64,000 bases of DNA from an uncultured Gemmatimonadaceae bacterium (GTDB lineage: Bacteria > Gemmatimonadota > Gemmatimonadetes > Gemmatimonadales > Gemmatimonadaceae), in assembly GCA_963790305.1 (NCBI GenBank), contig CAWBOC010000005.1:512001-576000 (forward strand), given 5' to 3'. Under the pieces are notes generated by a model, which made no database searches, was not told the DNA's origin, and saw only the letters and a program-made list of their open reading frames with translations. Both the position numbers and the translations under genes were made by a program. Positions 11,987 to 34,381 of this stretch are shown piece after piece. Each line of letters opens with the position of its first letter. Position 1 is the stretch's first letter.

Positions 11987-13351
11987 GTGCCACGACAGAC
12001 GCGCTCCACGCTCCCTGACGTTCGTGGCGCGACCGCCAACGACATTCTGGCGCTCGCGCGCCAGCACCACGTTCGCTTCCTGCGACTACAGTTCACCGAC
12101 ATCCTCGGCATCAACAAGAACGTCGAGGTGCCGTCGTCGCAGTTCGAGAAGGCGCTTGCCGGCGACATCATGTTCGACGGGTCCTCGATCGAGGGGTTCG
12201 TACGGATCGAAGAGTCGGACATGCTCCTCGCACCCGATCTCAACACGTTTCGGGTGTTTCCGTGGGGAGATGCCGAGAGCCGCGTCGCTCGCGTCATCTG
12301 CGACATCAACCTGCCGGATGGGAGTGCCTTTCCGGGCGACCCGCGCGGGGCGCTCAAGCGACAGATCGCACGCGCCGCGCAGATGGGATTCGTCATGAAT
12401 GCCGGTATGGAAGCGGAGTTCTTCCTCTTCAAGCCCGGCACCGCGGGAGAAGCCACGACCACCACGCATGATGTGGGCAGCTACTTCGACCTTGCACCCG
12501 CCGATCTCGGCGAAGACGCCAGGCGCGCGATCGTCGACGTGCTCGAGCAGATGGGATTCGAGGTCGAGGCGGCGCACCACGAGGTCGCGCACGGGCAGCA
12601 CGAAATCGACTTCCGTTACGCGGACGCGATGACGACGGCCGACAACATCGCGACTTTCCGCTTCGTCGTGAAGCACGTGGCGCAGCGATTCGGGCTTTTC
12701 GCGTCGTTCATGCCGAAGCCGATCTTCGGACAGAACGGCAGCGGCATGCACACGCATCAGTCGCTCTTCCGCGACGATGAGAACGCGTTCTGGGATCAGA
12801 AGGCGGAGTGGGAGCTGTCGCGGACGGCGCTGCATTACATTGGCGGCCTCTTGAAGCACGCGCGCGGATTCTGCGCGATCACGAACCCGCTGGTGAACTC
12901 CTACAAGCGGCTGGTGCCGGGCTACGAAGCGCCGGTGAACGTCGCCTGGTCGATGCGAAATCGCTCACCGCTGATCCGAATTCCGGAGCGGCGAGGGCAA
13001 GGCACCCGCGTCGAGCTCCGTATGCCAGACCCCGCCGCGAACCCGTATCTTGCCCTGGCGGTAATGCTCGCTGCCGGACTCGAAGGGATCGAGACCCAGG
13101 CCGATTGGCGCGAGCCGGTGAACGTCAACATCTGGGAGATGTCGCATCGCGAGAAGCGGCGGCTCCGGATCGACGATCTTCCACACGATCTCAACGAGGC
13201 GTGTGATGAGCTCGACAAAGACCGGGCGATTCGTGACGCGCTCGGCGATCACATTACCGAGCACTTTCTCGCCGCGAAGCGCGAGGAGTGGCGCGACTAC
13301 ATCACGCAGGTGTCTCCGTGGGAGCTCGAGAGCTACCTCGCGAAGTACTGA
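11987..13351 (+). CDS. glnA: Glutamine synthetase type I
   Basis: FDGSSIEGFVRIEESDM, HHEVA, FMPKP, NGSGMH, NSYKRLVPGYEAP, ELRMPDP. Confidence 0.96.
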   Translation: MPRQTRSTLPDVRGATANDILALARQHHVRFLRLQFTDILGINKNVEVPSSQFEKALAGDIMFDGSSIEGFVRIEESDMLLAPDLNTFRVFPWGDAESRVARVICDINLPDGSAFPGDPRGALKRQIARAAQMGFVMNAGMEAEFFLFKPGTAGEATTTTHDVGSYFDLAPADLGEDARRAIVDVLEQMGFEVEAAHHEVAHGQHEIDFRYADAMTTADNIATFRFVVKHVAQRFGLFASFMPKPIFGQNGSGMHTHQSLFRDDENAFWDQKAEWELSRTALHYIGGLLKHARGFCAITNPLVNSYKRLVPGYEAPVNVAWSMRNRSPLIRIPERRGQGTRVELRMPDPAANPYLALAVMLAAGLEGIETQADWREPVNVNIWEMSHREKRRLRIDDLPHDLNEACDELDKDRAIRDALGDHITEHFLAAKREEWRDYITQVSPWELESYLAKY

Positions 13352-17336: not shown

Positions 17337-17564
17337 GTGCGGGTCCTTGCCGGAAACGGCAGAGACGTCGGGAAATCAGAATTCGATGTCGGAATTCAGA
17401 GGGCACGATGACCTGCCTGTGCCCCTTGGTTGACGCGTGCAGGGTCGCTGTGGAAACGGGGATGGCGTTTGTTCGGGGCGGAACTTTTTACAGGCCTGCC
17501 CATCGCTCGGAACCGAGACTTGGTCTACATTGGTCGCCCCCTGCAACCATTTAGCGAGGATCCC

Positions 17565-18029
17565 ATGGCCAATCCGCCCAAGGGCTACCACACCGTCACG
17601 CCGGGCATCACGGTCAGCGACGGGGCGAAGGCGATCGAGTTCTACAAGGAGGCATTCGGAGCCGAGGAGGTGGAACGCATGGAAGGCCCCAATGGCTCGA
17701 TCATGCACGCGGAGATCCGCATCGGGGATTCGACCATCATGCTCGGGGGCGAGAATCCGATGTGGGGGATGAAGTCGCCACTCACCCTGGGCGGCGTCCA
17801 CGGCTCGCTTCACATCTACGTTGACGACGCCGACGCGGCCTTCGCCCGGGCGCTCGACGCCGGGTGCGAAGTCGCTCAGCCGCTGGAAGATGCCTTCTGG
17901 GGCGATCGCTATGGCAAAGTCACCGACCCCTTTGGTCACCAGTGGGGCCTGGCGACGCGCGTGAAGGAGTTGAGCAGGGAGGAGATGCGGAAGGCCGGGG
18001 AGGCGTGGATGCAGACGATGGCGGGGTGA
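17565..18029 (+). CDS. VOC/glyoxalase (PhnB-like) protein
   Basis: AIEFYKEAFGA, IMHAEIRIGDS, FWGDRYGKVTDPFGHQW; SD gagga. Confidence 0.93.
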   Translation: MANPPKGYHTVTPGITVSDGAKAIEFYKEAFGAEEVERMEGPNGSIMHAEIRIGDSTIMLGGENPMWGMKSPLTLGGVHGSLHIYVDDADAAFARALDAGCEVAQPLEDAFWGDRYGKVTDPFGHQWGLATRVKELSREEMRKAGEAWMQTMAG

Positions 18030-18157
18030 CTCCGGGGTGCGACAGTTGTGGTAGGCGACCATCGACTGTCGCACCAATCCATCGGAAGGCTAAAATCGCC
18101 GCGGGCTAAATTTGACGCAGATCGTTGTGGGCCAATCAGTTAGCACCACTCTACATA

Positions 18158-18172
18158 TGGCCCGTCGGTTGC
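18158..18172 (+). promoter_or_regulatory. Putative sigma54 promoter of the pyrrolyl cassette
   Basis: TGGCCCGTCGGTTGC, GG-N10-GC spacing. Confidence 0.5.
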
Positions 18173-18185
18173 GCTTGCCCCGCTC

Positions 18186-18234
18186 CGGTGCGAGCTCCCT
18201 CTGTGCTCGAAGGGAGCTCGCACCGTTTCTCTTT
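18186..18234 (+). terminator. Terminator-like hairpin within the 5' leader of the cassette
   Basis: 15-bp stem cggtgcgagctccct/agggagctcgcaccg followed by tttctcttt. Confidence 0.6.
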
Positions 18235-18275
18235 CCCCGTGGGGCGGTAACCCCCAACACCCGCACGCTATAGAT

Positions 18276-18953
18276 ATGTTCGAGATCGTTCGTCAGGATT
18301 TGCGCCGTTGTGTTCGCGTCAACCAGATGGGCACCTCTCATGGCCTGGCGGATTACCTCCGCGAGCTGTTCAACCCGGGAACGCAGGCGATCATCATCCA
18401 TCGCTTCGGCGTGTGGTCAGATCGAATCCGCTTTGTTCCGCTGCGTTATTTCCTCCGCACGGTGCACTTTCTGGTGCAGGCTTTCTTCCCCTGGCGCGCT
18501 GGTATCTACATCCCGATCAGGGCTGACATCGGGCCGGGGATAGCAATCCATACGTGGGGTGGGGGTGTCTTTTTGCCGGCCTGCAAGATCGGTCGGAATT
18601 TGACCATCATCGGAGGCGGCGTGCTGTTCGATTACGCCACGCTGGAGATTGGCGACAATGTGACGATCGGTGCCGGAACGAAGGGCACAGGCCGCCGGCG
18701 CATCGGTAACCGGGTCACGACGGGGCCCAACTCGGTCGTGATCGAGGACGTTCCCGATGACAGCCTCGTCTTCGGGAACCCGGGTCGCGTCATTGCAAAG
18801 CCGCGCCCGAGGCGGATGGGCGCGAGAGCTGGCGCCTCGAATGCGGCACAGCCCGCGCACGTCGCCAGCGAACCCAGCGCGATCAACGCGCCGGAGCCCG
18901 ACTCGGCTGCGACCGCCCCGTCCGTCAGCGCTCCGCGGCTCGCGGCGCTCTAG
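18276..18953 (+). CDS. Serine-acetyltransferase-like hexapeptide (LbH) acyltransferase
   Basis: IHRFG helix region, ADIGPG, IGDNVTIGAG, IGNRVTTGPNSVV, VPDDSLVFGNPGR. Confidence 0.8.
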   Translation: MFEIVRQDLRRCVRVNQMGTSHGLADYLRELFNPGTQAIIIHRFGVWSDRIRFVPLRYFLRTVHFLVQAFFPWRAGIYIPIRADIGPGIAIHTWGGGVFLPACKIGRNLTIIGGGVLFDYATLEIGDNVTIGAGTKGTGRRRIGNRVTTGPNSVVIEDVPDDSLVFGNPGRVIAKPRPRRMGARAGASNAAQPAHVASEPSAINAPEPDSAATAPSVSAPRLAAL

Positions 18954-18987
18954 TCTCCTCCTTCCCTAACGAGACGCACGGCGCGCC

Positions 18988-20151
18988 GTGGATTTCGCGC
19001 TGACCGCGGAGCAGGTCGAGCTCCGCGACAACGTTCTCGACTTCGCCCGCCGTGGTCTGAGTGCCGAGGCGGATGGAAGCGCCGCCGCGTCCATCGGCGG
19101 CTTCCGACGCGACCTGTGGGAACGCTGTGGGGAGTTCGGCATCCTCGGCTTGCCAGTCCCTAACGAGTACGGTGGCAGCGGGCACGACATGGTCACCACG
19201 ACCATCGCGATGGAGGCCCTCGGCGAGGGATGCCCCGATCACGGGCTGCTCTTCTCAATGCACGCGCACATGTGGGCAGTGGTGACGCCGATCATCGCGT
19301 TCGGTACACCGGAGCAGCGTGAACGCTATCTGCCGCGACTGGTGGACGGCTCATGGGTGGCGGCACATGGCATCAGCGAGCCCGGGTCCGGCTCCGACGC
19401 GTACTCGATGCGGGCGCGCGCGATCAAGGAGGGCGATCAGTACGTGCTGAACGGAACGAAGACGTTCGTGACGAACGCGCCGGTGGGTGACCTGTTCGTC
19501 GTCTTCGCCACCGTGAAGCCTGAACGCGGAATGTGGGGCGTGACCGCGTTTCTCATCGAGAAGGGAACGCCGGGACTTTCCGTCTCCCGTCCCTTCAAGA
19601 AGCTGGGTCTCACGACGTCGCCGATGGGCGAGGTCGTGCTCGACGATTGTCGCATCCCGGTTGCCAACCGGCTCGGGAAGGAAGGACAGGGTGCGACGAT
19701 CTTCAACCACTCGATGGGATGGGAGCGGAGCTGTATCCTTGCCAGTCAGGTGGGTCGAATGCAGCAGCAGCTCGACGCATGCGTTCGCTACGCCCAGGAG
19801 CGCGAACAGTTCGGGAAGCCGATTGGAAGCTTCCAGCTCGTCGCCGCCAAGATCGCCGACATGAAGGTGCGACTCGAGACGTCGCGCCTGCTCCTGTATC
19901 GCGCCGCGTGGCAGCTCTCGAGAGCCGCCGAGGGCAGTGCGATGGAAGCGGCGATGGCGAAGCTGTACATCAGCGAGTCAGCCGTGGCGTCGGCGCTCGA
20001 CGCCGTGCAACTGCACGGCGGCTATGGCTACATGCAGGACTTCCACGTCGAGCAGCAGTTGCGCGATTCCATTGGCGGCACCCTGTACTCCGGTACGTCG
20101 GAGATCCAGCGAATGCTCATCGCGCGCCACCTCGGACTCAGCCCCGCCTGA
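18988..20151 (+). CDS. Acyl-CoA dehydrogenase family, likely L-prolyl-PCP dehydrogenase (PltE/RedW-like)
   Basis: SEPGSGSD, LNGTKTFVTN, REQFGKPIGSFQ, HGGYGY, YSGTSEIQR; adjacent to A domain and carrier protein. Confidence 0.82.
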   Translation: MDFALTAEQVELRDNVLDFARRGLSAEADGSAAASIGGFRRDLWERCGEFGILGLPVPNEYGGSGHDMVTTTIAMEALGEGCPDHGLLFSMHAHMWAVVTPIIAFGTPEQRERYLPRLVDGSWVAAHGISEPGSGSDAYSMRARAIKEGDQYVLNGTKTFVTNAPVGDLFVVFATVKPERGMWGVTAFLIEKGTPGLSVSRPFKKLGLTTSPMGEVVLDDCRIPVANRLGKEGQGATIFNHSMGWERSCILASQVGRMQQQLDACVRYAQEREQFGKPIGSFQLVAAKIADMKVRLETSRLLLYRAAWQLSRAAEGSAMEAAMAKLYISESAVASALDAVQLHGGYGYMQDFHVEQQLRDSIGGTLYSGTSEIQRMLIARHLGLSPA

Positions 20152-20152
20152 C

Positions 20153-21748
20153 ATGAATTATCTCCTCTGGCATGCGCCGGCTCAGAGCGCGCGCGTATTT
20201 CCCAATCGACCGGCGGTGCAGGACACCGCCACGACCTTCACGCATCGCGAGCTGCACGAGCTCAGCAATGGCGTGGCTACCCTGCTCACGTCCTGCGGCC
20301 TAACGCGCGGTGAGCGCGTGGGAATGTGGATGCCGAAGCAGGCGCGCTCCGTCGCCGTCATGCTGGGCGCCTCGAAGTGCGGCGGCATCTACGTCCCTGT
20401 GGATCCGCAGGCCCCCGTCGAGCGGGCCGCGTACATCCTCGGCAACGCCGACATCAGCGTGCTGGTCACATCGCGCCGACTCCTGGCGTCGCTGTCGCAG
20501 CACATCGGAGCCTTTGCGTCCTTGCGCGCGATCGTCGTGGTCGATGAGAAGGACGCCGAGCTCTCGGGAAGGCCGGTGCCGACCTTCGGGTGGGGTGCCG
20601 TATCCCCGACGACGGAGCCGCCCGTGGTAGCGAACGCGGTGGACAGCGATCCCGCGTACATGCTCTACACGTCGGGCTCCACGGGAACACCCAAGGGCGT
20701 GGTGATCAGCCACCTCAACGCGCTCACCTTCATCGAGTGGACGATCGCGACGTTCGGTATTCGGCCCGAGGATCGACTGTCGGGCCACGCCCCGCTGCAC
20801 TTCGATCTTTCCGTGTTCGACATTTACGCCGCGCTCGGGACGGGTGCCTGCGTCGTGATGGTCCCCGACCGCATCGCACCCTTTCCAGCCGAGTTCGCGA
20901 AATGGATCGAGGACCAGAGGATCACGGTCTCGTACATGGTGCCCTCGGCGTTCATCCGGCTGCTGAAGCATGGTGAGCTCGAGCGGTTCAGCTATGCCTC
21001 GCTGCGCACGATCCTGTTCGCCGGCGAGGTGTTTCCGGTGAAGCACCTGCGCGAAGTGATGCCGCACTTCCCGAACGCGGACTGGTTCAATCTCTACGGG
21101 CCCACGGAGACGAACGTCTGCACGTGGACGCCTGTCCCCAAGCCGCTCGTTCAGGAGCATGAGCTCTCGATCGGCCAGTCGTGCGAGAACTTCGACTGCT
21201 TCGCGCTCACGAGCGATGGTCGCAAGGCGCGACCCGGAGAGGAAGGGGAGCTCGTCGTGCGCGGGCCTGGCGTCATGCTCGGCTACTGGAAGCTGCCCGA
21301 GCGCACGGCAAAGAATCTGACGCCAAATCCTCTGCACAAGGACTTCACCGATCTCATCTACCGCACCGGCGACCTGGTGCGCGTGCTCGAGGACGGCATC
21401 TCCTTCCAGTACATCGCTCGGCTCGACCATATGGTGAAGACACGCGGCTACCGCGTCGAGCTCGAGGAGATCGAGCACGTCCTGCACGCGAACACGCGCA
21501 TCCGCAACGCTGCGGTCGTGGCCATCCCCAATGACGAGGTCGGCGCGCGGCTTCGCGCGGCGGTCGTCGTCGAAGACGGGGACGGGCTGTCACAGCAGGA
21601 GCTTGCGACCCACTGTGCGACGAGGCTTCCGAGCTACGCGATTCCCGAGCTGTTCGTGATGATGCATGAGCTGCCCACGACGTCCACCGGGAAAGTGGAT
21701 CGTCGCAGTCTCGCCGAATCACTCGGACAATACACGGCGGCGGGGTGA
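20153..21748 (+). CDS. Stand-alone adenylation enzyme, predicted L-proline--PCP ligase (PltF/RedM-like)
   Basis: YTSGSTGTPKG, FDLSVFD, NLYGPTETNVC, YRTGD, PTTSTGKVDR; hand-extracted specificity code DLFYLALVCK. Confidence 0.82.
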   Translation: MNYLLWHAPAQSARVFPNRPAVQDTATTFTHRELHELSNGVATLLTSCGLTRGERVGMWMPKQARSVAVMLGASKCGGIYVPVDPQAPVERAAYILGNADISVLVTSRRLLASLSQHIGAFASLRAIVVVDEKDAELSGRPVPTFGWGAVSPTTEPPVVANAVDSDPAYMLYTSGSTGTPKGVVISHLNALTFIEWTIATFGIRPEDRLSGHAPLHFDLSVFDIYAALGTGACVVMVPDRIAPFPAEFAKWIEDQRITVSYMVPSAFIRLLKHGELERFSYASLRTILFAGEVFPVKHLREVMPHFPNADWFNLYGPTETNVCTWTPVPKPLVQEHELSIGQSCENFDCFALTSDGRKARPGEEGELVVRGPGVMLGYWKLPERTAKNLTPNPLHKDFTDLIYRTGDLVRVLEDGISFQYIARLDHMVKTRGYRVELEEIEHVLHANTRIRNAAVVAIPNDEVGARLRAAVVVEDGDGLSQQELATHCATRLPSYAIPELFVMMHELPTTSTGKVDRRSLAESLGQYTAAG

Positions 21749-21826
21749 CGGCATTGCGCAGTGCTCGACGGCCGGTGCAGCTTCAGCGCGGTGTCCTAAC
21801 GTGTTCTCCCATCGAATCGTACCAAC

Positions 21827-22078
21827 ATGCTACGGAATGACCTGACGAAGTTCATCCAGGAGAACCTCCTCCAGAAAGATCCGACCCCGGTCGGGCCGGA
21901 GGATTCCCTCATCGATAGCGGGATCATCAATTCGATGGGCCTGATCCGGCTCGTGAGCTTCATCGAGACTCGGACTGGCGTCCGCATTCCGGATGCGATG
22001 ATCACTCCGGACAACTTCGAGACGGTCACGGCGATCGAGCGGACGATCGACGAGGTGCGGCACCAGCGCGGGGTCTGA
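21827..22078 (+). CDS. Peptidyl/acyl carrier protein (PltL-like)
   Basis: 83 aa, SGIINSMGLIRLV phosphopantetheine Ser motif, ITPDNFETV. Confidence 0.88.
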   Translation: MLRNDLTKFIQENLLQKDPTPVGPEDSLIDSGIINSMGLIRLVSFIETRTGVRIPDAMITPDNFETVTAIERTIDEVRHQRGV

Positions 22079-22202
22079 CGGCGGGCAGCACGTTCGGCAG
22101 TACGTGATGTCAGGGGATGGAAGCTGTTGCCGGCGCGGGGATTGGTCGTCACCCATGAGATCCTACCGCCTCCTCGAAGTCCCCCCGCCTCGAGAGCCTG
22201 CC

Positions 22203-22925
22203 ATGTCCGAACGAATTGCCCCGCCATGTCCCCACGACGTGGGGCCTGGCATACCAGTCTGCCTTCGCTGTCGTAAGGAGAACCGCGTAACGACGCGAGA
22301 GCGTCGTCGGCGCGCACTTTTTGCCACGGCCGCCCTTGCCCTTGGAATCGCCACCATTGGAGCCGCGGGCGCCGCCGGCATGCTCGACAGCGAGCTGCGT
22401 GCGGCCGGTTTCACAAGACCTGAAGCAGCGGTGCCCTCTACGCCCTCGGTATCCGAGCCGCAGAGCGCCCCCGCGACTGCACCAGATTCTGCACCCGTTG
22501 TGTCCATCGCGTCCGAAGACACCGTGGTGAGCGTAGCGAGCGTGACCACCCCACCCGCACCAGAGCTCGCTCCCACCATTGGTGAAGGCCGGACGGCGTT
22601 ACGCGATGGGATCGTCGCGCAGCGAAGCGGTGATGAGATCACGGTCCACTTCGATACTCCGCTGTCGCGCACGCGGCGGCCGGAGAAGTTCGAAGGGGTC
22701 CTGCGCGCGACGCTCCCGCAGATCTTTGGAGCCTCGGTCGATTCCGCGCTCGCCACCATGCCCACGGGCACGCTGGTGCCTCCGCACGGTCTGACGACGG
22801 ACCTGCCGACGCAGGGACTCTACGTCCCCATACCCGGCGGATCGACGCTCCGCGTCTGGCCCGAGACGCGTTCCGGGGAGGACGGCCCGCTGGTGGTGCG
22901 CTACCGCGTGCTCGTGGTTTCCTAG
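22203..22925 (+). CDS. Hypothetical membrane-anchored protein with N-terminal Cys/His cluster
   Basis: CPH...CLRC, TM helix, Pro/Ser linker, C-terminal domain. Confidence 0.6.
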   Translation: MSERIAPPCPHDVGPGIPVCLRCRKENRVTTRERRRRALFATAALALGIATIGAAGAAGMLDSELRAAGFTRPEAAVPSTPSVSEPQSAPATAPDSAPVVSIASEDTVVSVASVTTPPAPELAPTIGEGRTALRDGIVAQRSGDEITVHFDTPLSRTRRPEKFEGVLRATLPQIFGASVDSALATMPTGTLVPPHGLTTDLPTQGLYVPIPGGSTLRVWPETRSGEDGPLVVRYRVLVVS

Positions 22926-22940: not shown

Positions 22941-24350
22941 TTAGGCGGCGTTGCGCCTCGGCACTCGCAGGGTACGTGTTTCTCCATCCATGCCCTGCCG
23001 TATGACCAGCCGCGCATTCTGACAGATCGGGAAGTCATCGAACACCGGCTGTAGCGCGACCAGGAGCGCATCCGCGCTCGGTCCGTAGTGATAGAGTGCT
23101 GTCTCGGTAGGACCATTCCACGCGCCGCGCAGCTCACCGTTCACCGAATCGGCCGCCAGGGCGAGACGCTCCATCAGCGCGTCAATGTCCGTCTCCGCAT
23201 AGATCTCGTCGGGGAGGCTCGTGCCATCGAGGTAAACTGCCAGCCCTTCCTGCACGCCAAAGGGCTGTTCGACGTCCACGCCATCCTGCTGGAAGAGGAA
23301 TTGCGACCCCACGGGCGCGCCAGCGTCCTCGAGGATTCGCTTGGCGACATCGAGCGACTCGTCGAGATTCGCCAGCGACAACTCGACATCGACATACCCG
23401 ATCTCGGCGGCCGAGGTGAGCTGGGAGCCGCCGCCGGTGACCCATCCGAGCATGCGGATGCTGAGCGCGTCCTGCACTGGATCTTCGTAGCGCGCTCCAC
23501 GATCCATGGGCTCTATGTGCTCGGGGATGCGCGCAATGACGACATGCGGGAAGCGGTCACGGTCGACCACATCCTCGCGCACTGCTCCGAGGCGCAGCGG
23601 CGCGGGAGCGGCGCTGATCTCGCCGCGCATCCACTCCGGATGTCGCTGGATGGCATCGAGGATCGGCTCGCCCTGGATCTCGAAGTTCTCGCCGAGCATG
23701 GTTCGCAGCATCGGCTCGAACAGCCCGACGCCCAACTGCTCCCGGAATTCCGCGAGGGTGCGCTCGTCCTTGGCATAGCGCGCGAAGAGCTCGTCCGCAT
23801 CGGTCAGCCGCAGCGGAGCATGGCCCGTGGCGGCGACGCGCTCACCATGAGTCCGGAGGGTCGAGCGCGTGTCGACGGTGGCATCGACACGCTCGACGAC
23901 GAGGTCCGGCGGCATGGGGAGACCGTTGTCGATCGTTCCGCGCGCCGTCACGAGCACACGCCCATCGGCGAGCCAGCTGTGGAGGACGAGGCACTGTACC
24001 GGGTCGCCCTCGGCCGCGGGCACCTCGAACCACATGGCGGCGATCGCGCCGTGGGCGCCGAGCGCGAACCGGACGAACGACTTCTTCGACACGTCGGTGA
24101 GGATGAGCGCGGCGTCCTCGAAATCGCCCAGCGTCTCGAAGCCGACTCTCGTCAGCTCGCGCTCGACTCTCTGGTAAAAGCTGACGTCACGCTCGGGGAA
24201 ATCGGACGCATCCACCCGCTCGTAGCGGGCGCGATGCTCGATCATCGTCCGAATCTGGGCCACGAGCGTTTGCGCTACCTGCTCGAAGACCTCGGCCGGA
24301 AGGGCATCGCCGACTCCATTGCCGTCGTCCTCGTATTCGTCTGCTTGCAT
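22941..24350 (-). CDS. Hypothetical two-domain acidic protein
   Basis: Long ORF with GC-rich codon usage; start MQADEYEDD chosen to avoid overlap with argJ. Confidence 0.65.
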   Translation of the reverse strand: MQADEYEDDGNGVGDALPAEVFEQVAQTLVAQIRTMIEHRARYERVDASDFPERDVSFYQRVERELTRVGFETLGDFEDAALILTDVSKKSFVRFALGAHGAIAAMWFEVPAAEGDPVQCLVLHSWLADGRVLVTARGTIDNGLPMPPDLVVERVDATVDTRSTLRTHGERVAATGHAPLRLTDADELFARYAKDERTLAEFREQLGVGLFEPMLRTMLGENFEIQGEPILDAIQRHPEWMRGEISAAPAPLRLGAVREDVVDRDRFPHVVIARIPEHIEPMDRGARYEDPVQDALSIRMLGWVTGGGSQLTSAAEIGYVDVELSLANLDESLDVAKRILEDAGAPVGSQFLFQQDGVDVEQPFGVQEGLAVYLDGTSLPDEIYAETDIDALMERLALAADSVNGELRGAWNGPTETALYHYGPSADALLVALQPVFDDFPICQNARLVIRQGMDGETRTLRVPRRNAA

Positions 24351-24438
24351 CTCCCGCTCTAGATGAAAGGGCTGGAGGAGAGACTGGTCAGACGGCGGGG
24401 AGGCAACGGGACGCCGTTCGCAGTATTCTTCCCGCACG

Positions 24439-25602
24439 ATGTTCCACGACCCGCCTCGGTTTCCGCGCGGCTTTCGAACGGCGAGCCGCAACTGCGGCCT
24501 CAAGCCGTCGGCGAAAGACCTCGCCGTGTTCGTGAGCCAAGTGGACGCTGCCGCGGCGGCGGTGTTCACGCGCAATCTCTTTCCCGGAGCGCCGGTACTG
24601 CTGGGGCGGGAGACGATTCGCGGTGGCGTACTCCGGGCAATCGTCGTGAACAGCAAGGTGAGCAACGTGGCGACGGGAGAGCGTGGTCTCGCGGCAGCAC
24701 GGCGCATGGCGACGGCGGCTGCTCAGGCGTTAGGCACGTCGCCCGATCGCGTGCTCGTCAGCTCGACCGGCGTCATCGGCGTTCCCCTGCCCATCGAGAA
24801 GATCGAGCGAGGACTCAATGGCATCGCGGACGATCTCGTCGATGATCCGCGCGTTGGCGCCGAGGGCATCATGACGACCGACTCGCATCCCAAGGCGCTC
24901 TCGCTGGGCGTCGGTGATGCCACCATCACCTGGGTGGCGAAAGGCTCCGGAATGATCGAGCCGAACATGGCGACGATGCTGTCCTACATCATGACGGACG
25001 CGGCGATCACGGCGCAGGCGCTCGACCGGCTCCTGCGCGAGGTCGTGGACGTCTCGTTCAACATGCTGTCGGTCGACACCGACACGAGCACGTCCGATAC
25101 CTGCGTCATTCTCGCCAATGGCCTGGCCGGACCGGTCGAGGGCGATGCCTTTCGCAAGGCGCTCACGACGGGATCCCTTCGCATGACGGAAATCCTCGCA
25201 CGCGACGGGGAAGGCGCAACCAAGCTGCTGCGGGCGACGGTCCGCGGCGCCGTCAATGCGGCCGAGGCGCGCCGGATCGCGAAGTCCATCGTGAACTCGC
25301 CGCTGGTGAAGACGATGGTCCACGGCGCCGATCCGAACGTTGGCCGGCTGCTCATGGCGGTCGGCAAGTGCTTCGAGTGCACGATTCGTCCAGAGGCCAC
25401 CGAGGCATGGATCAACGGCCAGAAGGTCGTGCACCAGGGCGAGCGGACGTCGTTCGAAGAATCCGCCGTGCGTGCCGCGCTCGCCACCGATACGACCGAT
25501 ATTCTTGTCTCGCTCGGGGTCGGCGACGGGGAAGCAACTGCCTTTGGGTGCGATCTTAGTGCGGGGTACATCTCTGAGAATGCGGCTTACTATTCCAGCT
25601 AA
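24439..25602 (+). CDS. argJ: Bifunctional ornithine acetyltransferase / N-acetylglutamate synthase
   Basis: SSTGVIG, IMTTD, KGSGMIEPNMATML autocleavage site, DTSTSD, RDGEGATK. Confidence 0.95.
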   Translation: MFHDPPRFPRGFRTASRNCGLKPSAKDLAVFVSQVDAAAAAVFTRNLFPGAPVLLGRETIRGGVLRAIVVNSKVSNVATGERGLAAARRMATAAAQALGTSPDRVLVSSTGVIGVPLPIEKIERGLNGIADDLVDDPRVGAEGIMTTDSHPKALSLGVGDATITWVAKGSGMIEPNMATMLSYIMTDAAITAQALDRLLREVVDVSFNMLSVDTDTSTSDTCVILANGLAGPVEGDAFRKALTTGSLRMTEILARDGEGATKLLRATVRGAVNAAEARRIAKSIVNSPLVKTMVHGADPNVGRLLMAVGKCFECTIRPEATEAWINGQKVVHQGERTSFEESAVRAALATDTTDILVSLGVGDGEATAFGCDLSAGYISENAAYYSS

Positions 25603-31690: not shown

Positions 31691-31783
31691 GAGGTCGTCG
31701 AGGGTGTCAATGTGATCGAGGGTGTCGAGGTAAAAAGCCGTTACCTCGACACCCTCGACGACATCGACATCCTTGACTACCTC
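31691..31783. repeat. Tandem-inverted 9-mer repeat (GTCGAGGGT-like) between convergent genes
   Basis: gtcgagggt-gtcaatgtg-atcgagggt-gtcgaggta ... tacctcgac-accctcgac-gacatcgac-atccttgac; same unit as 27357. Confidence 0.8.
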
Positions 31784-31787
31784 CGCT

Positions 31788-34020
31788 TCATACCGGGAAC
31801 AGCATCTCCCGATACTTCGGCAGCGGCCACAGCTCGTCGGCCACCACCAGCTCGAGCTTGTCGCACGCCGCACGCACTCCAGCCATCGCCTCCGCGCCCG
31901 TCGACGTCAGCATCTTCGCGCACTTGTCGAGATCGTCGTGCATGTGCTCCGCCTTCTCGATGACCGCGGCCAGCTTCTCCCGCTCGGCGCGCAGATCCTC
32001 GATCAGCGCTCCGACCTCGTTCGCGCGCATCGATCTGCGGAATGGCCCTGATGCCTGCCGCCTTCGCCTGCGCCGCGCTGGTCGCCAGCTGACCCGCGTA
32101 GGTGAACGCCGCCGGCAGCACCATCGTATCGACCATCTGCTGCAGCGTGTACAGCTCGATCAGCATGTCCTTGATGTACCGCTCCATGCGGACATGGTAG
32201 CGTGACTCGAGCTCCTCCTTCGTCAACACACCAAGCTTGCTCAGCAGCGACCGTGACTGCTTCGTCACCAGCTGCGCCAATGCCTCGGGCGTCCGGCGGT
32301 AGTTAGGCAGCCCACGCTTCTCCGCTTCCGTCACCCACTCCTCGGCGTAGTTGTTCCCTTCGAAGCGGACGGGGGTCGACTCCTTGAACGACTCCTTCAC
32401 GACCTTGAGCACGGCGTCATCCACCGACTTCGTCTTCTTGAGCTCCGCCTTCAGCGCCTCGGTGATCTCGGCCAGGCCATCGGCGACCGCGGCGTTCAGG
32501 AGCGTCACCGGGAACGCGATCGACTGCGACGATCCCACCGCGCGGAACTCGAACTTGTTCCCCGTGAACGCGAACGGTGACGTGCGGTTGCGATCGGTGT
32601 TGTCCTTCTCGATGTCGGGCAGCTTCGCCACGCCCAGCTTGATGAGCTGCTGCTCGGCGCCGCGGGCCGATTCCTTTCCGGCGATGATGCCATCGATCAG
32701 CTTCGTCAGCATGTCGCCCATGAACACCGAGATGATCGCCGGCGGCGCTTCGTTCGCGCCGAGACGGTGTTCGTTGCCCGAGGTCGCGATGCCCGCGCGC
32801 AGCAGGCCCGAGTGCTTGTGCACGCCGCGCAGTACCGCCGCCAGGAATACGAGGAAGCGGATGTTCTGATGCGGCGTCTTGCCGGGCTTGAGCAGGTTGA
32901 GGCCGTCGAGCTCGTTGTCGGCCGTGATCGCCATCGACCAGTTGCAGTGCTTGCCCGAGCCGTTGATGCCGGCGAACGGCTTCTCGTGCAGCAACGCCTG
33001 GAGCCCGTGCCGCAGGGCGACGCGACGCATCGTCGCCATCACCATCTGGTTGTGGTCGACGCCGAGGTCGGTCTCCTCGAAGTGGGGCGCCATCTCGAAC
33101 TGCGACGGCGCGACCTCGTTATGCCGCGTCACGATCGGCACGCCGAGCTTGTAGAGCTCCTGCTCGATCTCGGCAATGCACGCCTGGATGCGCTCGGGAA
33201 TGCCGCCGAAATAGTGGTCCTCGAGCTGCTGGCCGCGTGGAGGTGGAGCGCCGACGAGCGTGCGGCCGGCCATGACGAGGTCGGGACGCATCGCGAAGTA
33301 ATTCCGGTCGATCAGGAAGTACTCCTGCTCCGGTCCCAGCGTCGTGAACACGCGCTGCACGCCCTTGTCGCCTAACAGCTCGAGCAGCTCGATCGCGCGC
33401 TGCGACAGCATGTCCGAGCTCCGCAGCATCGGGGTCATCTCGTCGAGCGCCTCGCCGTTGTAGCCGATGAACACCGACGGAATGCACAGCGTGCGGACGC
33501 CGCCCACCTCGTGGATGAACACCGGGCTGGCGGGGTTCCATGCCGTGTAGCCGCGCGCTTCCCAGGTCGCGCGCAGACCGCCCGACGGGAAGCTCGACGC
33601 ATCCGGCTCGCTCTGGATCAGCTGCGACGCCGAGAACGACTCCATCGGATGCTGGTTCTCGTCGAACGACAGGAAAGCATCGTGCTTCTCGGCGGTGAGT
33701 CCGGTCTGGGGCTGAAACCAGTGCGTGAAATGGGTCACCCCCCTGGAAATCGCCCATTCCTTGATGACCTGCGCCACGACGGGCGCAATCTCGAGGTCGA
33801 GCTTTTTCCCGAGTCGCACGGAGGCGACCAGCTTCTGGTAGACGTGCGCCGGCAGCTTGTCGCGCATCTGACGCGCGCCAAAGGTATTGCAGCCGAAGTA
33901 GGAGGAAGTCGGCAGATGGGCTCCGTTGGTGTGCGCGGACCCGTTAGGCGTGGCAGTGGGACGTGCGGTACGCCCCGCGATCTCCTGAAGGATAGCGCGG
34001 CGTGGACTGGCGACGGGCAT
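31788..34020 (-). CDS. Glutamine synthetase type III (frameshift near 32030)
   Basis: HWFQPQTG, EPDASSFPSGGLR, HNEVAP, EKPFAGINGSGKH, DRNRTSPFAFTGNKFEFR; C-terminal WPLPKYREMLF in second frame. Confidence 0.93.
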
Positions 34021-34056
34021 GGGGGTGGGGCTCCGAGTCGGGGAACTGGGTGAAGG

Positions 34057-34085
34057 CTGCGAACTGCGTACTGCGTACTGCGTAG
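34057..34085. repeat. Heptamer tandem repeat (CTGCGTA) in the GSIII 5' region
   Basis: gctgcgaactgcgtactgcgtactgcgta. Confidence 0.7.
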
Positions 34086-34381
34086 TCTGCAGATCTGGCA
34101 AATTTATGCCCTCGTTTCGCGAAATCCAGGCCACGTTTTGGACGCTTTGACCCCGTGTTCGTGCAGAAAACGCACGATCACGCGGGCAGTGAGGCGTCCC
34201 GCCGATGCGCGGGCGCTACACTCCATGAGAACGCTTAAATGAAACAACGGCAGTCCTTTAGATCGCGTGACTACGCCTGACGGCGGCGCGTCTGAACACT
34301 GTGGTCGCCGTCCCCCCCGGAGCGGCCAGATCGGCGCGTCCGGGTTTGCCTATCCGCTGAATCCAAAAGGACTTCCAGACA

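Follow-up and report, generated by a model that had tools for sequence, protein, structure and literature searches.

The window analysed here, a stretch of 64,000 nucleotides from an uncultured Gemmatimonadaceae bacterium (C5:512001-576000 of the source genome G000; 4.3 Mb, 13 contigs, 94% complete), encodes a cassette of four genes for a predicted acyltransferase of the left-handed beta-helix type (LbH), a flavoenzyme of the acyl-CoA dehydrogenase type (ACAD), a stand-alone adenylation (A) domain and a free-standing peptidyl carrier protein (PCP). We are almost certain that the triad of ACAD, A domain and PCP yields a PCP-bound prolyl thioester in oxidised form. We give about an even chance to the reading that the resulting pyrrolyl-S-PCP is handed by the LbH to an acceptor in a polysaccharide-type pathway. 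The DNA is high-GC, and the database records of LbH homologues are named as metagenome-assembled genomes (MAGs) of Gemmatimonadaceae.

An earlier note, made from the sequence alone, had described four co-oriented genes in the order LbH-ACAD-A-PCP, and open reading frames (ORFs) together with a domain scan confirmed this order on the plus strand. The first gene (18276-18953) encodes the LbH of 225 aa, a protein similar to serine acetyltransferases (SATs) in which helices at the N-terminus are predicted to precede beta-helix coils and a low-complexity tail of variable sequence. Next come the gene for the ACAD (18988-20151, 387 aa, three ACAD Pfam domains), a predicted prolyl-carrier-protein dehydrogenase, and that for the A domain (20153-21748, 531 aa), which is predicted to be specific for L-proline and whose ATG comes directly after the ACAD stop codon. 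The PCP (21827-22078, 83 aa) is encoded last. The start at 18158 given earlier had to be corrected: this position is intergenic, and the ATG there opens a frame that differs from that of the LbH and soon closes with a stop codon, while a start at 18276 agrees with the family consensus N-terminus MFExVRxDL.

The A domain contains the Pfam domains AMP-binding and AMP-binding_C and passes the model for amino acid adenylation (TIGR01733, 353 bits, cutoff 317.4). Among single-domain proteins of solved structure, PltF is its best relative (324 bits), and over the pocket region PltF reached 167 bits and the next chain 121 bits. A residue-by-residue alignment to PltF (6o6e_B), in which the ten specificity positions were placed by GrsA numbering, gave the code DLFYLALVC+K, which is identical at nine of ten positions to DLLYLALVC+K of PltF; the A10 Lys was aligned as well. 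The code extracted by hand in the earlier note, DLFYLALVCK, was reproduced in this way and is, as judged from the alignment, a proline code. We rejected a function as D-Ala ligase (DltA): two DltA models remained below their cutoffs (278.7 vs 476 and 268.5 vs 559.85 bits) and solved DltA chains scored at most 203 bits vs 324 bits for PltF, so that the sequence scores give no sign of the preference for D-Ala that the note had named as speaking against its proposal. The A domain is also the top match of the genome to the exosortase A-associated acyl-CoA ligase (TIGR03098), with 342 bits below the cutoff of 592.35.

The PCP matched PP-binding (PF00550, 25.7 bits, cutoff 20.8), and its best solved relatives are the PCP 2my5, PltL and the carrier 6cxt_A, followed at lower rank by aminoacyl carriers and DltC. 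Structure 6cxt is, as we take it, the Bmp3-Bmp1 complex, with Bmp3 as chain 6cxt_B, which the depositors name butyryl-CoA dehydrogenase, and Bmp1 as chain 6cxt_A. The attachment residue Ser36 lies in GIINSMG and is invariant in all 13 aligned carriers, confirming the NS motif noticed before; most other carriers read DS at this position.

The ACAD is the sole gene product of its kind in the genome (runner-up 232 bits). Its two best NCBIfam families are PigA (NF053553, 450.2 bits, cutoff 500) and RedW (NF045652, 446.3 bits, cutoff 650), about 120 bits above the next family (324 bits). The four best distinct solved relatives are AnaB (430 bits, matching over the full length), 6cxt_B (342 bits) and PigA (318 and 315 bits), prolyl-carrier dehydrogenases that rank ahead of the generic ACADs with at most 302 bits. 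With a PltF-like code, a dehydrogenase of this relationship and a PltL-like PCP, the triad is a prolyl-carrier system, as had been proposed. A four-electron oxidation to the pyrrole is most likely. We prefer pyrrole over pyrroline because a halogenase similar to PltA and to the 5buk enzyme, presumably Mpy16, adjoins the PCP in an orthologous cassette (locus L042; LbH 60% and ACAD 64% identical to those of the window): the gene directly after the PCP there encodes a flavin halogenase that, among solved enzymes, is most similar to ChlB4, the 5buk enzyme and PltA, each with about 413 bits. More distant triads are flanked by halogenases, too.

The flavoenzyme could also stop after two electrons, as AnaB does, and leave a dehydroprolyl (pyrroline-carboxyl) unit on the carrier, with the remaining pathway unchanged. 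AnaB is indeed the solved enzyme closest to the ACAD, well ahead of 6cxt_B and PigA, neither of the two equivalog models for pyrrole formation gives the ACAD a score above its cutoff, and the source genome has no pyrrolyl-type halogenase (best tblastn match 28% identical). However, the scores with the PigA and RedW models are no lower than that with AnaB, and halogenases of the type found after the PCP in L042 and beside related triads act on aromatic pyrrolyl carriers. We know of no way to predict the number of oxidations by such dehydrogenases from sequence similarity alone. The halogenase in L042 favours the aromatic pyrrole and AnaB as nearest solved relative keeps a two-electron product in play, but we consider the latter improbable. 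This issue cuts across the fate of the carrier-bound group, whichever enzyme accepts it.

The LbH is a member of a small SAT-like family. It scored 22.9 bits with Hexapep (PF00132, cutoff 27), which many family members do carry, and was far below the cutoffs for EpsC (NF041874, 52.5 vs 150 bits) and cysE (TIGR01172, 46.3 vs 210.65 bits); LpxD models gave only about 19 bits. The best solved relatives found with a family profile were SATs (E 4e-19). In the AlphaFold model (pLDDT 77), four helices (residues 1-75) form an N-terminal part of good confidence, followed by short strands in a coil region modelled with less confidence (pLDDT 61-88), and the listed Foldseek matches were all CysE/SAT with a TM score of about 0.5. 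The motif IHTWGGG (H92, T93, W94) is nearly invariant in the family, and in a profile alignment with three SATs its His is aligned with the SAT Asp that immediately precedes the catalytic His, so that the shift suspected by eye in IHTWGG holds at the level of the alignment. The SAT loop that bears an Arg-His pair, presumably for binding of serine, is shortened and the pair is absent, as is the long N-terminal SATase_N domain. The family is tight: 135 proteins were found at E <=0.001, most of the 120 listed being at least 48% identical before a sharp drop, and the profile retrieved 130 cluster representatives at E <=1e-30 vs 7,818 at 1e-10. Almost all members come from Gemmatimonadota MAGs or metagenomes, and a protein atlas offered just generic clusters, Hexapep or "putative serine acetyltransferase". 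Among 19 long relatives found with the profile, three are fused to GT4 glycosyltransferases, three to GT2 glycosyltransferases and one to a flippase.

These properties bear on the possibility that the LbH has nothing to do with transfer, being a housekeeping SAT or a thioesterase-like protein that merely frees pyrrole-2-carboxylic acid; LbH thioesterases such as PaaY exist. SATs are closest by sequence and by fold, and in the 94%-complete genome no canonical cysE above the cutoff of 210.65 bits was found, the strongest match outside the window being 48.7 bits on contig C3. We nevertheless rejected a housekeeping SAT because of the motif, score and distribution of the LbH: the cysE model yields 46 bits against the required 211, the Arg-His loop is shortened and lacks its residues, the His is offset, and among 41 close relatives the LbH was detected at E <1e-60 in just five, the source genome included, where it always adjoins a carrier or the triad. 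In addition, an LbH of the sugar-acetyltransferase type can stand in for it, and the family has the fusions to glycosyltransferases mentioned above. Taken together, we regard an LbH unrelated to the triad's product, or one that only hydrolyses it, as very unlikely.

The association of the LbH with the triad was examined in the 41 relatives, in a genome collection, in a sample of 301 Gemmatimonadota genomes and in metagenome contigs. In two congeners the whole locus is syntenic, with LbH proteins 75% identical and triad proteins 92-98% identical. Members of the LbH family were present in 12 genome loci, seven with LbH-ACAD-A-PCP, one with LbH-PCP, one with a PCP gene in divergent orientation and three with the LbH alone. 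Metagenome contigs contributed 21 loci at an identity of at least 44%, of which four run into the contig end; in 14 of the 17 informative loci an ACAD gene comes directly after that of the LbH, and the remaining three continue for at least 590 nt downstream without ACAD or PCP. Conservation with the triad, on which the earlier proposal depended, is therefore borne out by these seven of 12 genome and 14 of 17 metagenome loci. Viewed from the ACAD, 12 genomes encode a protein at least 60% identical, 11 of them assessable, and in nine of these an LbH lies directly upstream. In four of the nine (G002, G003, G039 and G052; ACAD about 60-63% identical to that of the window) this LbH belongs to another subfamily, similar to Maa/WbbJ/LacA; in G003 and G039 the nearest NCBIfam models are maltose or galactoside O-acetyltransferases and WbbJ. 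Hence, it is the role and not the gene that is conserved at the LbH position. In the following, the SAT-like LbH of the window type together with ACAD-A-PCP is called the type-1 cassette and the Maa/WbbJ/LacA-like LbH with ACAD the type-2 cassette.

Genome G005, that of a congener, carries the cassette in two parts. The site that corresponds to the window (L061, G005:C125) has kept the glyoxalase-family gene, the ACAD (95% identical) and the A domain (89% identical), and the genes for LbH and PCP are missing. The latter two are found together (64% and 50% identical) at an operon end in a second site (L041, G005:C99), a polysaccharide locus with a GT4 glycosyltransferase, GNATs, a GDSL protein, a deacetylase and a homologue of a phosphopantetheinyl transferase (PPTase). 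We take the LbH for the probable enzyme that unloads the carrier onto an acceptor of a glycan pathway because it keeps its place beside the triad, even at orphan sites, because another LbH subfamily can replace it, because LbH and PCP have moved together in G005 and because relatives in its family are fused to GT4, GT2 and a flippase.

More distant triads (ACADs 51-65% identical) have no LbH. Beside the PCP of four of these triads, in G186, G214, G151 and G036, mutually homologous proteins of 850-918 aa are encoded (L060:7612-10368, L095:9852-12569, L098:9186-11738 and L099:5332-7875), which are 32-42% identical to one another and in two of the four cases give a C-terminal GDSL/SGNH match; one or two halogenases and sulfation genes are often close by. 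A close homologue of these proteins was not found in the source genome. We tentatively suggest, with less than even confidence, that an exopolysaccharide or glycoconjugate of Gemmatimonadota receives pyrrole-2-carboxyl groups, which in some lineages would be halogenated, straight from the PCP, and that three interchangeable partners may carry out the transfer: the SAT-like LbH, the Maa/WbbJ-like LbH and the SGNH-domain protein of about 900 aa. Distant relatives of the LbH (39-40% identical) also occur outside the cassette, in a Phycisphaeraceae MAG (L047:8001-9864) and in L048:5241-6491, where they adjoin an adenylating enzyme of the PaaK/AMP-binding_C_2 type or a small carrier in divergent orientation.

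The connection to polysaccharide biosynthesis, likewise proposed before, is backed by synteny in other Gemmatimonadota and by the fused LbH relatives. The cassettes of relatives sit among genes for Wzy_C, GT4/GT2 glycosyltransferases, an AsnB-type amidotransferase, a deacetylase, AT3 acyltransferases and a carbamoyltransferase. The counterpart in the source genome is a polysaccharide-type locus on contig C9 (about 940-977 kb; L019, L020), which also holds the only nonribosomal peptide synthetase (NRPS) and the only large polyketide synthase (PKS) of the genome. The NRPS has the domain order C-A-T-C-A(MOx)-T (C, condensation; T, thiolation), A(MOx) being an A domain with an inserted luciferase-like monooxygenase, and the PKS reads KS-AT-KR-DH-ACP (ketosynthase, acyltransferase, ketoreductase, dehydratase, acyl carrier protein). 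The locus further encodes glycosyltransferases, a Wzx-like flippase, two AT3 acyltransferases, a HetI-like PPTase, a DegT aminotransferase, a deacetylase scoring above the cutoff of the XrtA-system model and two alpha/beta hydrolases (hydr1 and hydr2) with weak similarity to the XrtA-associated hydrolases 1 and 2; the genome, 94% complete, yielded no match to exosortase (PF09721). In L040, L045 and L096 the type-1 cassette has homologues of hydr2/hydr1 (46-56% identical) as immediate neighbours. In G021 and G044 the order hydr2-hydr1 is found directly upstream of the cassette, and in G315 the genes are arranged as PKS-hydr2-hydr1-x-LbH-ACAD-A-PCP. The cassette of G041 adjoins A(MOx)-T, hydrolases and PKS and has a PltA/5buk-like halogenase after the PCP, and that of G042 lies 22 kb from an NRPS-PKS amid Wzy_C, glycosyltransferases, a priming sugar transferase and a sigma-54 two-component pair. 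The type-2 cassette of the congeners G002 and G003 is located exactly between genes for YceI and an aldehyde dehydrogenase, which are neighbours in the C9 locus of the source genome. The aldehyde dehydrogenase gene is complete in G002 and the source genome and is reduced in G003 to a remnant of 62 residues (L055:10357-10542, 65% identical).

The earlier idea that the LbH takes the place of a PKS or NRPS is thus not borne out: an NRPS-PKS exists on C9, and the cassettes of relatives lie in or beside that locus. This brings in the classical route, in which the triad supplies pyrrolyl-S-PCP as starter to the C9 NRPS-PKS, taken up by the N-terminal C domain or, in genomes without C domain, by the KS of the PKS as PltL feeds PltB, and in which the LbH would be a tailoring enzyme of the usual kind, moving acetyl groups from acetyl-CoA to O or N of the same product or of the polysaccharide. 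The NRPS has no loading module, and its first C domain is of the elongation type and closest to the N-terminal C domain of McyB (378 bits), an elongation-type domain that receives its donor in trans. The A domain and PCP of the window are the sole free-standing pair for an amino acid seen in the source genome. A large PKS or NRPS gene of the C9-type system is present in all ten type-1 cassette genomes examined, which are mutually related and were picked up via the LbH itself and of which G043 is counted on condensation domains only and G044 on a ketosynthase in a frame of PKS size only; the A(MOx) module was found in 15 of the 301 genomes of the phylum sample. In G041, G042, G315 and G021 the cassette either adjoins the PKS/NRPS or shares a contig with it.

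On the other hand, 12 of those 15 genomes with A(MOx) have no ACAD, and the same holds for G001, G009 and G018; therefore the NRPS-PKS system runs without a pyrrolyl starter there. The ACAD was detected in 17 of 301 genomes, 14 of them without A(MOx), and with only three genomes containing both, an obligate link between triad and A(MOx) NRPS was rejected. In G039 (98% complete) a type-2 cassette is present and neither a C domain nor a large PKS was found, and in G315 and G041 the A(MOx)-T has no C domain. The classical route also leaves unexplained why an LbH of either subfamily adjoins the triad, even at orphan sites, and why LbH and PCP have moved jointly in G005. We rate a hand-off of the starter to the NRPS-PKS as the less probable course, possible but doubtful.

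According to the reading that we favour, the A domain would activate L-proline and load it onto the free-standing PCP, which presumably is primed by the HetI-like PPTase of the C9 locus, and the ACAD would oxidise prolyl-S-PCP, most likely by four electrons, to pyrrole-2-carboxyl-S-PCP. We infer that the LbH uses this PCP thioester and not acetyl-CoA as acyl donor, and it would move the pyrrolyl group onto a hydroxyl or amino group of an intermediate in a polysaccharide-type pathway of Gemmatimonadota, with a sugar as the favoured acceptor. The receiving pathway would be that of the C9 locus with its glycosyltransferases, flippase, XrtA-type deacetylase, two hydrolases and the NRPS-PKS with A(MOx).

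Several observations weigh against this proposal. Both LbH subfamilies normally use acetyl-CoA, and the window-type LbH occurs without triad or carrier in three of 17 informative metagenome loci and three of 12 genome loci. The ACAD is below both equivalog cutoffs and has in AnaB, a two-electron oxidase, its closest solved relative. The C9 NRPS opens with a McyB-like C domain and no loading module, and a large PKS or NRPS gene of this system accompanies the type-1 cassette in ten of ten genomes; the co-occurrence with A(MOx)/PKS is equally compatible with the classical hand-off and keeps it alive. All genomes compared are MAGs, whose kinship inflates the co-occurrence counts, and the split in G005 could be natural or an artefact of MAG binning. 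Finally, the cassette of the source genome lies amid housekeeping genes, at least 320 kb from both ends of its own contig, so that its connection to C9 rests on the other genomes.

The neighbouring genes in the window encode Nramp, glutamine synthetases, ArgJ and RtcB. Among 52 window ORFs scanned with Pfam (16 + 36), none coded for a PKS, NRPS, halogenase, FabH-like protein or glycosyltransferase, in line with the earlier statement that the first four are missing from the window. Upstream of the cassette lies a glyoxalase-family gene (17430-18029, plus strand), which was preferred to a minus-strand ORF at 17376-18077. Between it and the LbH gene, a hairpin followed by a U-rich tract (18186-18225, plus strand) has a 15-bp stem and a folding energy of -43.7 kcal/mol (z -6.2; 0 of 200 shuffles folded equally well); it is likely a terminator that makes the cassette its own transcription unit. 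The hairpin was not listed by a consensus terminator scan, and a promoter scan gave 0 sigma-70-like sites. No family matched the ORF 22104-22925 downstream, and because its conservation ends at the genus it was not included in the cassette. A conserved ORF of 588 aa without family match (22941-24707, minus strand) overlaps the annotated start of the ArgJ ORF (24439-25602, plus strand) by about 270 nt; probably the true start of one of them lies further in. The window also encodes two distinct types of glutamine synthetase, one GSI-like and one GSIII, less than 20 kb apart (11987-13351, plus strand, and 31777-34134, minus strand).

The triad for conversion of proline to pyrrole is a textbook module of natural-product biosynthesis, and here it is tied to LbH enzymes in polysaccharide loci of a poorly cultured soil phylum, which points to a so far undescribed role for carrier-protein chemistry in the building of the cell envelope. 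If the LbH accepts the PCP thioester, the donor range of SAT-like and sugar-acetyltransferase LbHs would exceed acyl-CoA and fatty acyl-ACP, and the carrier, ligase and hydrolase genes of exosortase-type exopolysaccharide loci, which have long lacked an explanation, would become easier to approach. A pyrrole decoration would represent a new chemical class among envelope modifications, made by the first LbHs that act on an amino acid-derived PCP thioester, and aromatic or halogenated esters on soil exopolysaccharide would bear on matrix chemistry and possibly on resistance to phages or grazers. If the pyrrole primes the NRPS-PKS instead, the finding would still draw attention to an uncharacterised NRPS-PKS pathway for glycoconjugates that is conserved in Gemmatimonadota.

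In the open-access text of the literature, no description was found of a triad for a pyrrolyl carrier that has an LbH as partner or lies within a polysaccharide locus, nor a paper on the tetronate genes of Vibrio cholerae. The system shares with PltF/PltE/PltL, PigI/PigA/PigG, RedM/RedW/RedO and Bmp the free-standing proline A domain, the ACAD-type dehydrogenase and the small PCP; the NS-type attachment motif is shared with PltL, and the PltA-like halogenase after the PCP in L042 recalls the pyoluteorin system. In those systems the pyrrolyl carrier feeds a ketosynthase or PKS within a natural-product cluster, whereas here the triad is constantly accompanied by an LbH acyltransferase and, in relatives, lies among genes for polysaccharide biosynthesis; moreover, the ACAD does not reach the equivalog cutoffs of PigA and RedW. 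The starter system of anatoxin-a, AnaC/AnaB/AnaD, provides the best solved relative of the ACAD, but it is cyanobacterial and has no LbH partner, and AnaB oxidises only as far as the pyrroline, which is passed to a PKS. The CysE/EpsC SATs, with helical N-domain and beta-helix, are closest to the LbH in predicted fold and sequence; the LbH differs from them by scores far below the family cutoffs, a His one position earlier and the lack of the Arg-His loop and of the long SATase_N domain. The XrtA/PEP-CTERM set (TIGR03098 ligase, ACP, pyridoxal phosphate-dependent decarboxylase, hydrolases 1/2) also combines an adenylating enzyme and a carrier with two hydrolases in an exopolysaccharide locus; unlike in that set, all parts but the deacetylase are below cutoff here, an ACAD is found in place of the decarboxylase, an LbH is present in addition and no exosortase was found in the genome. 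A precedent for pyrrolyl groups on sugars is given by CloN3/N4/N5 with CloN2 and CloN7 (clorobiocin, coumermycin), where the carrier-bound pyrrole-2-carboxyl group ends up as an ester on a deoxysugar hydroxyl; the transferases are a FabH-like enzyme and an alpha/beta hydrolase and the acceptor is a small-molecule glycoside, so that neither an LbH transferase nor a polysaccharide pathway is involved. LpxA and LpxD, in turn, are LbH acyltransferases that move an acyl group from a carrier-protein thioester to a hydroxyl or amine of a sugar; they belong to other LbH subfamilies and use fatty acyl-ACP for lipid A, unlike the SAT-like LbH of the window, for which the genomic coupling to PCP and triad suggests that it may use a carrier thioester in an analogous manner.

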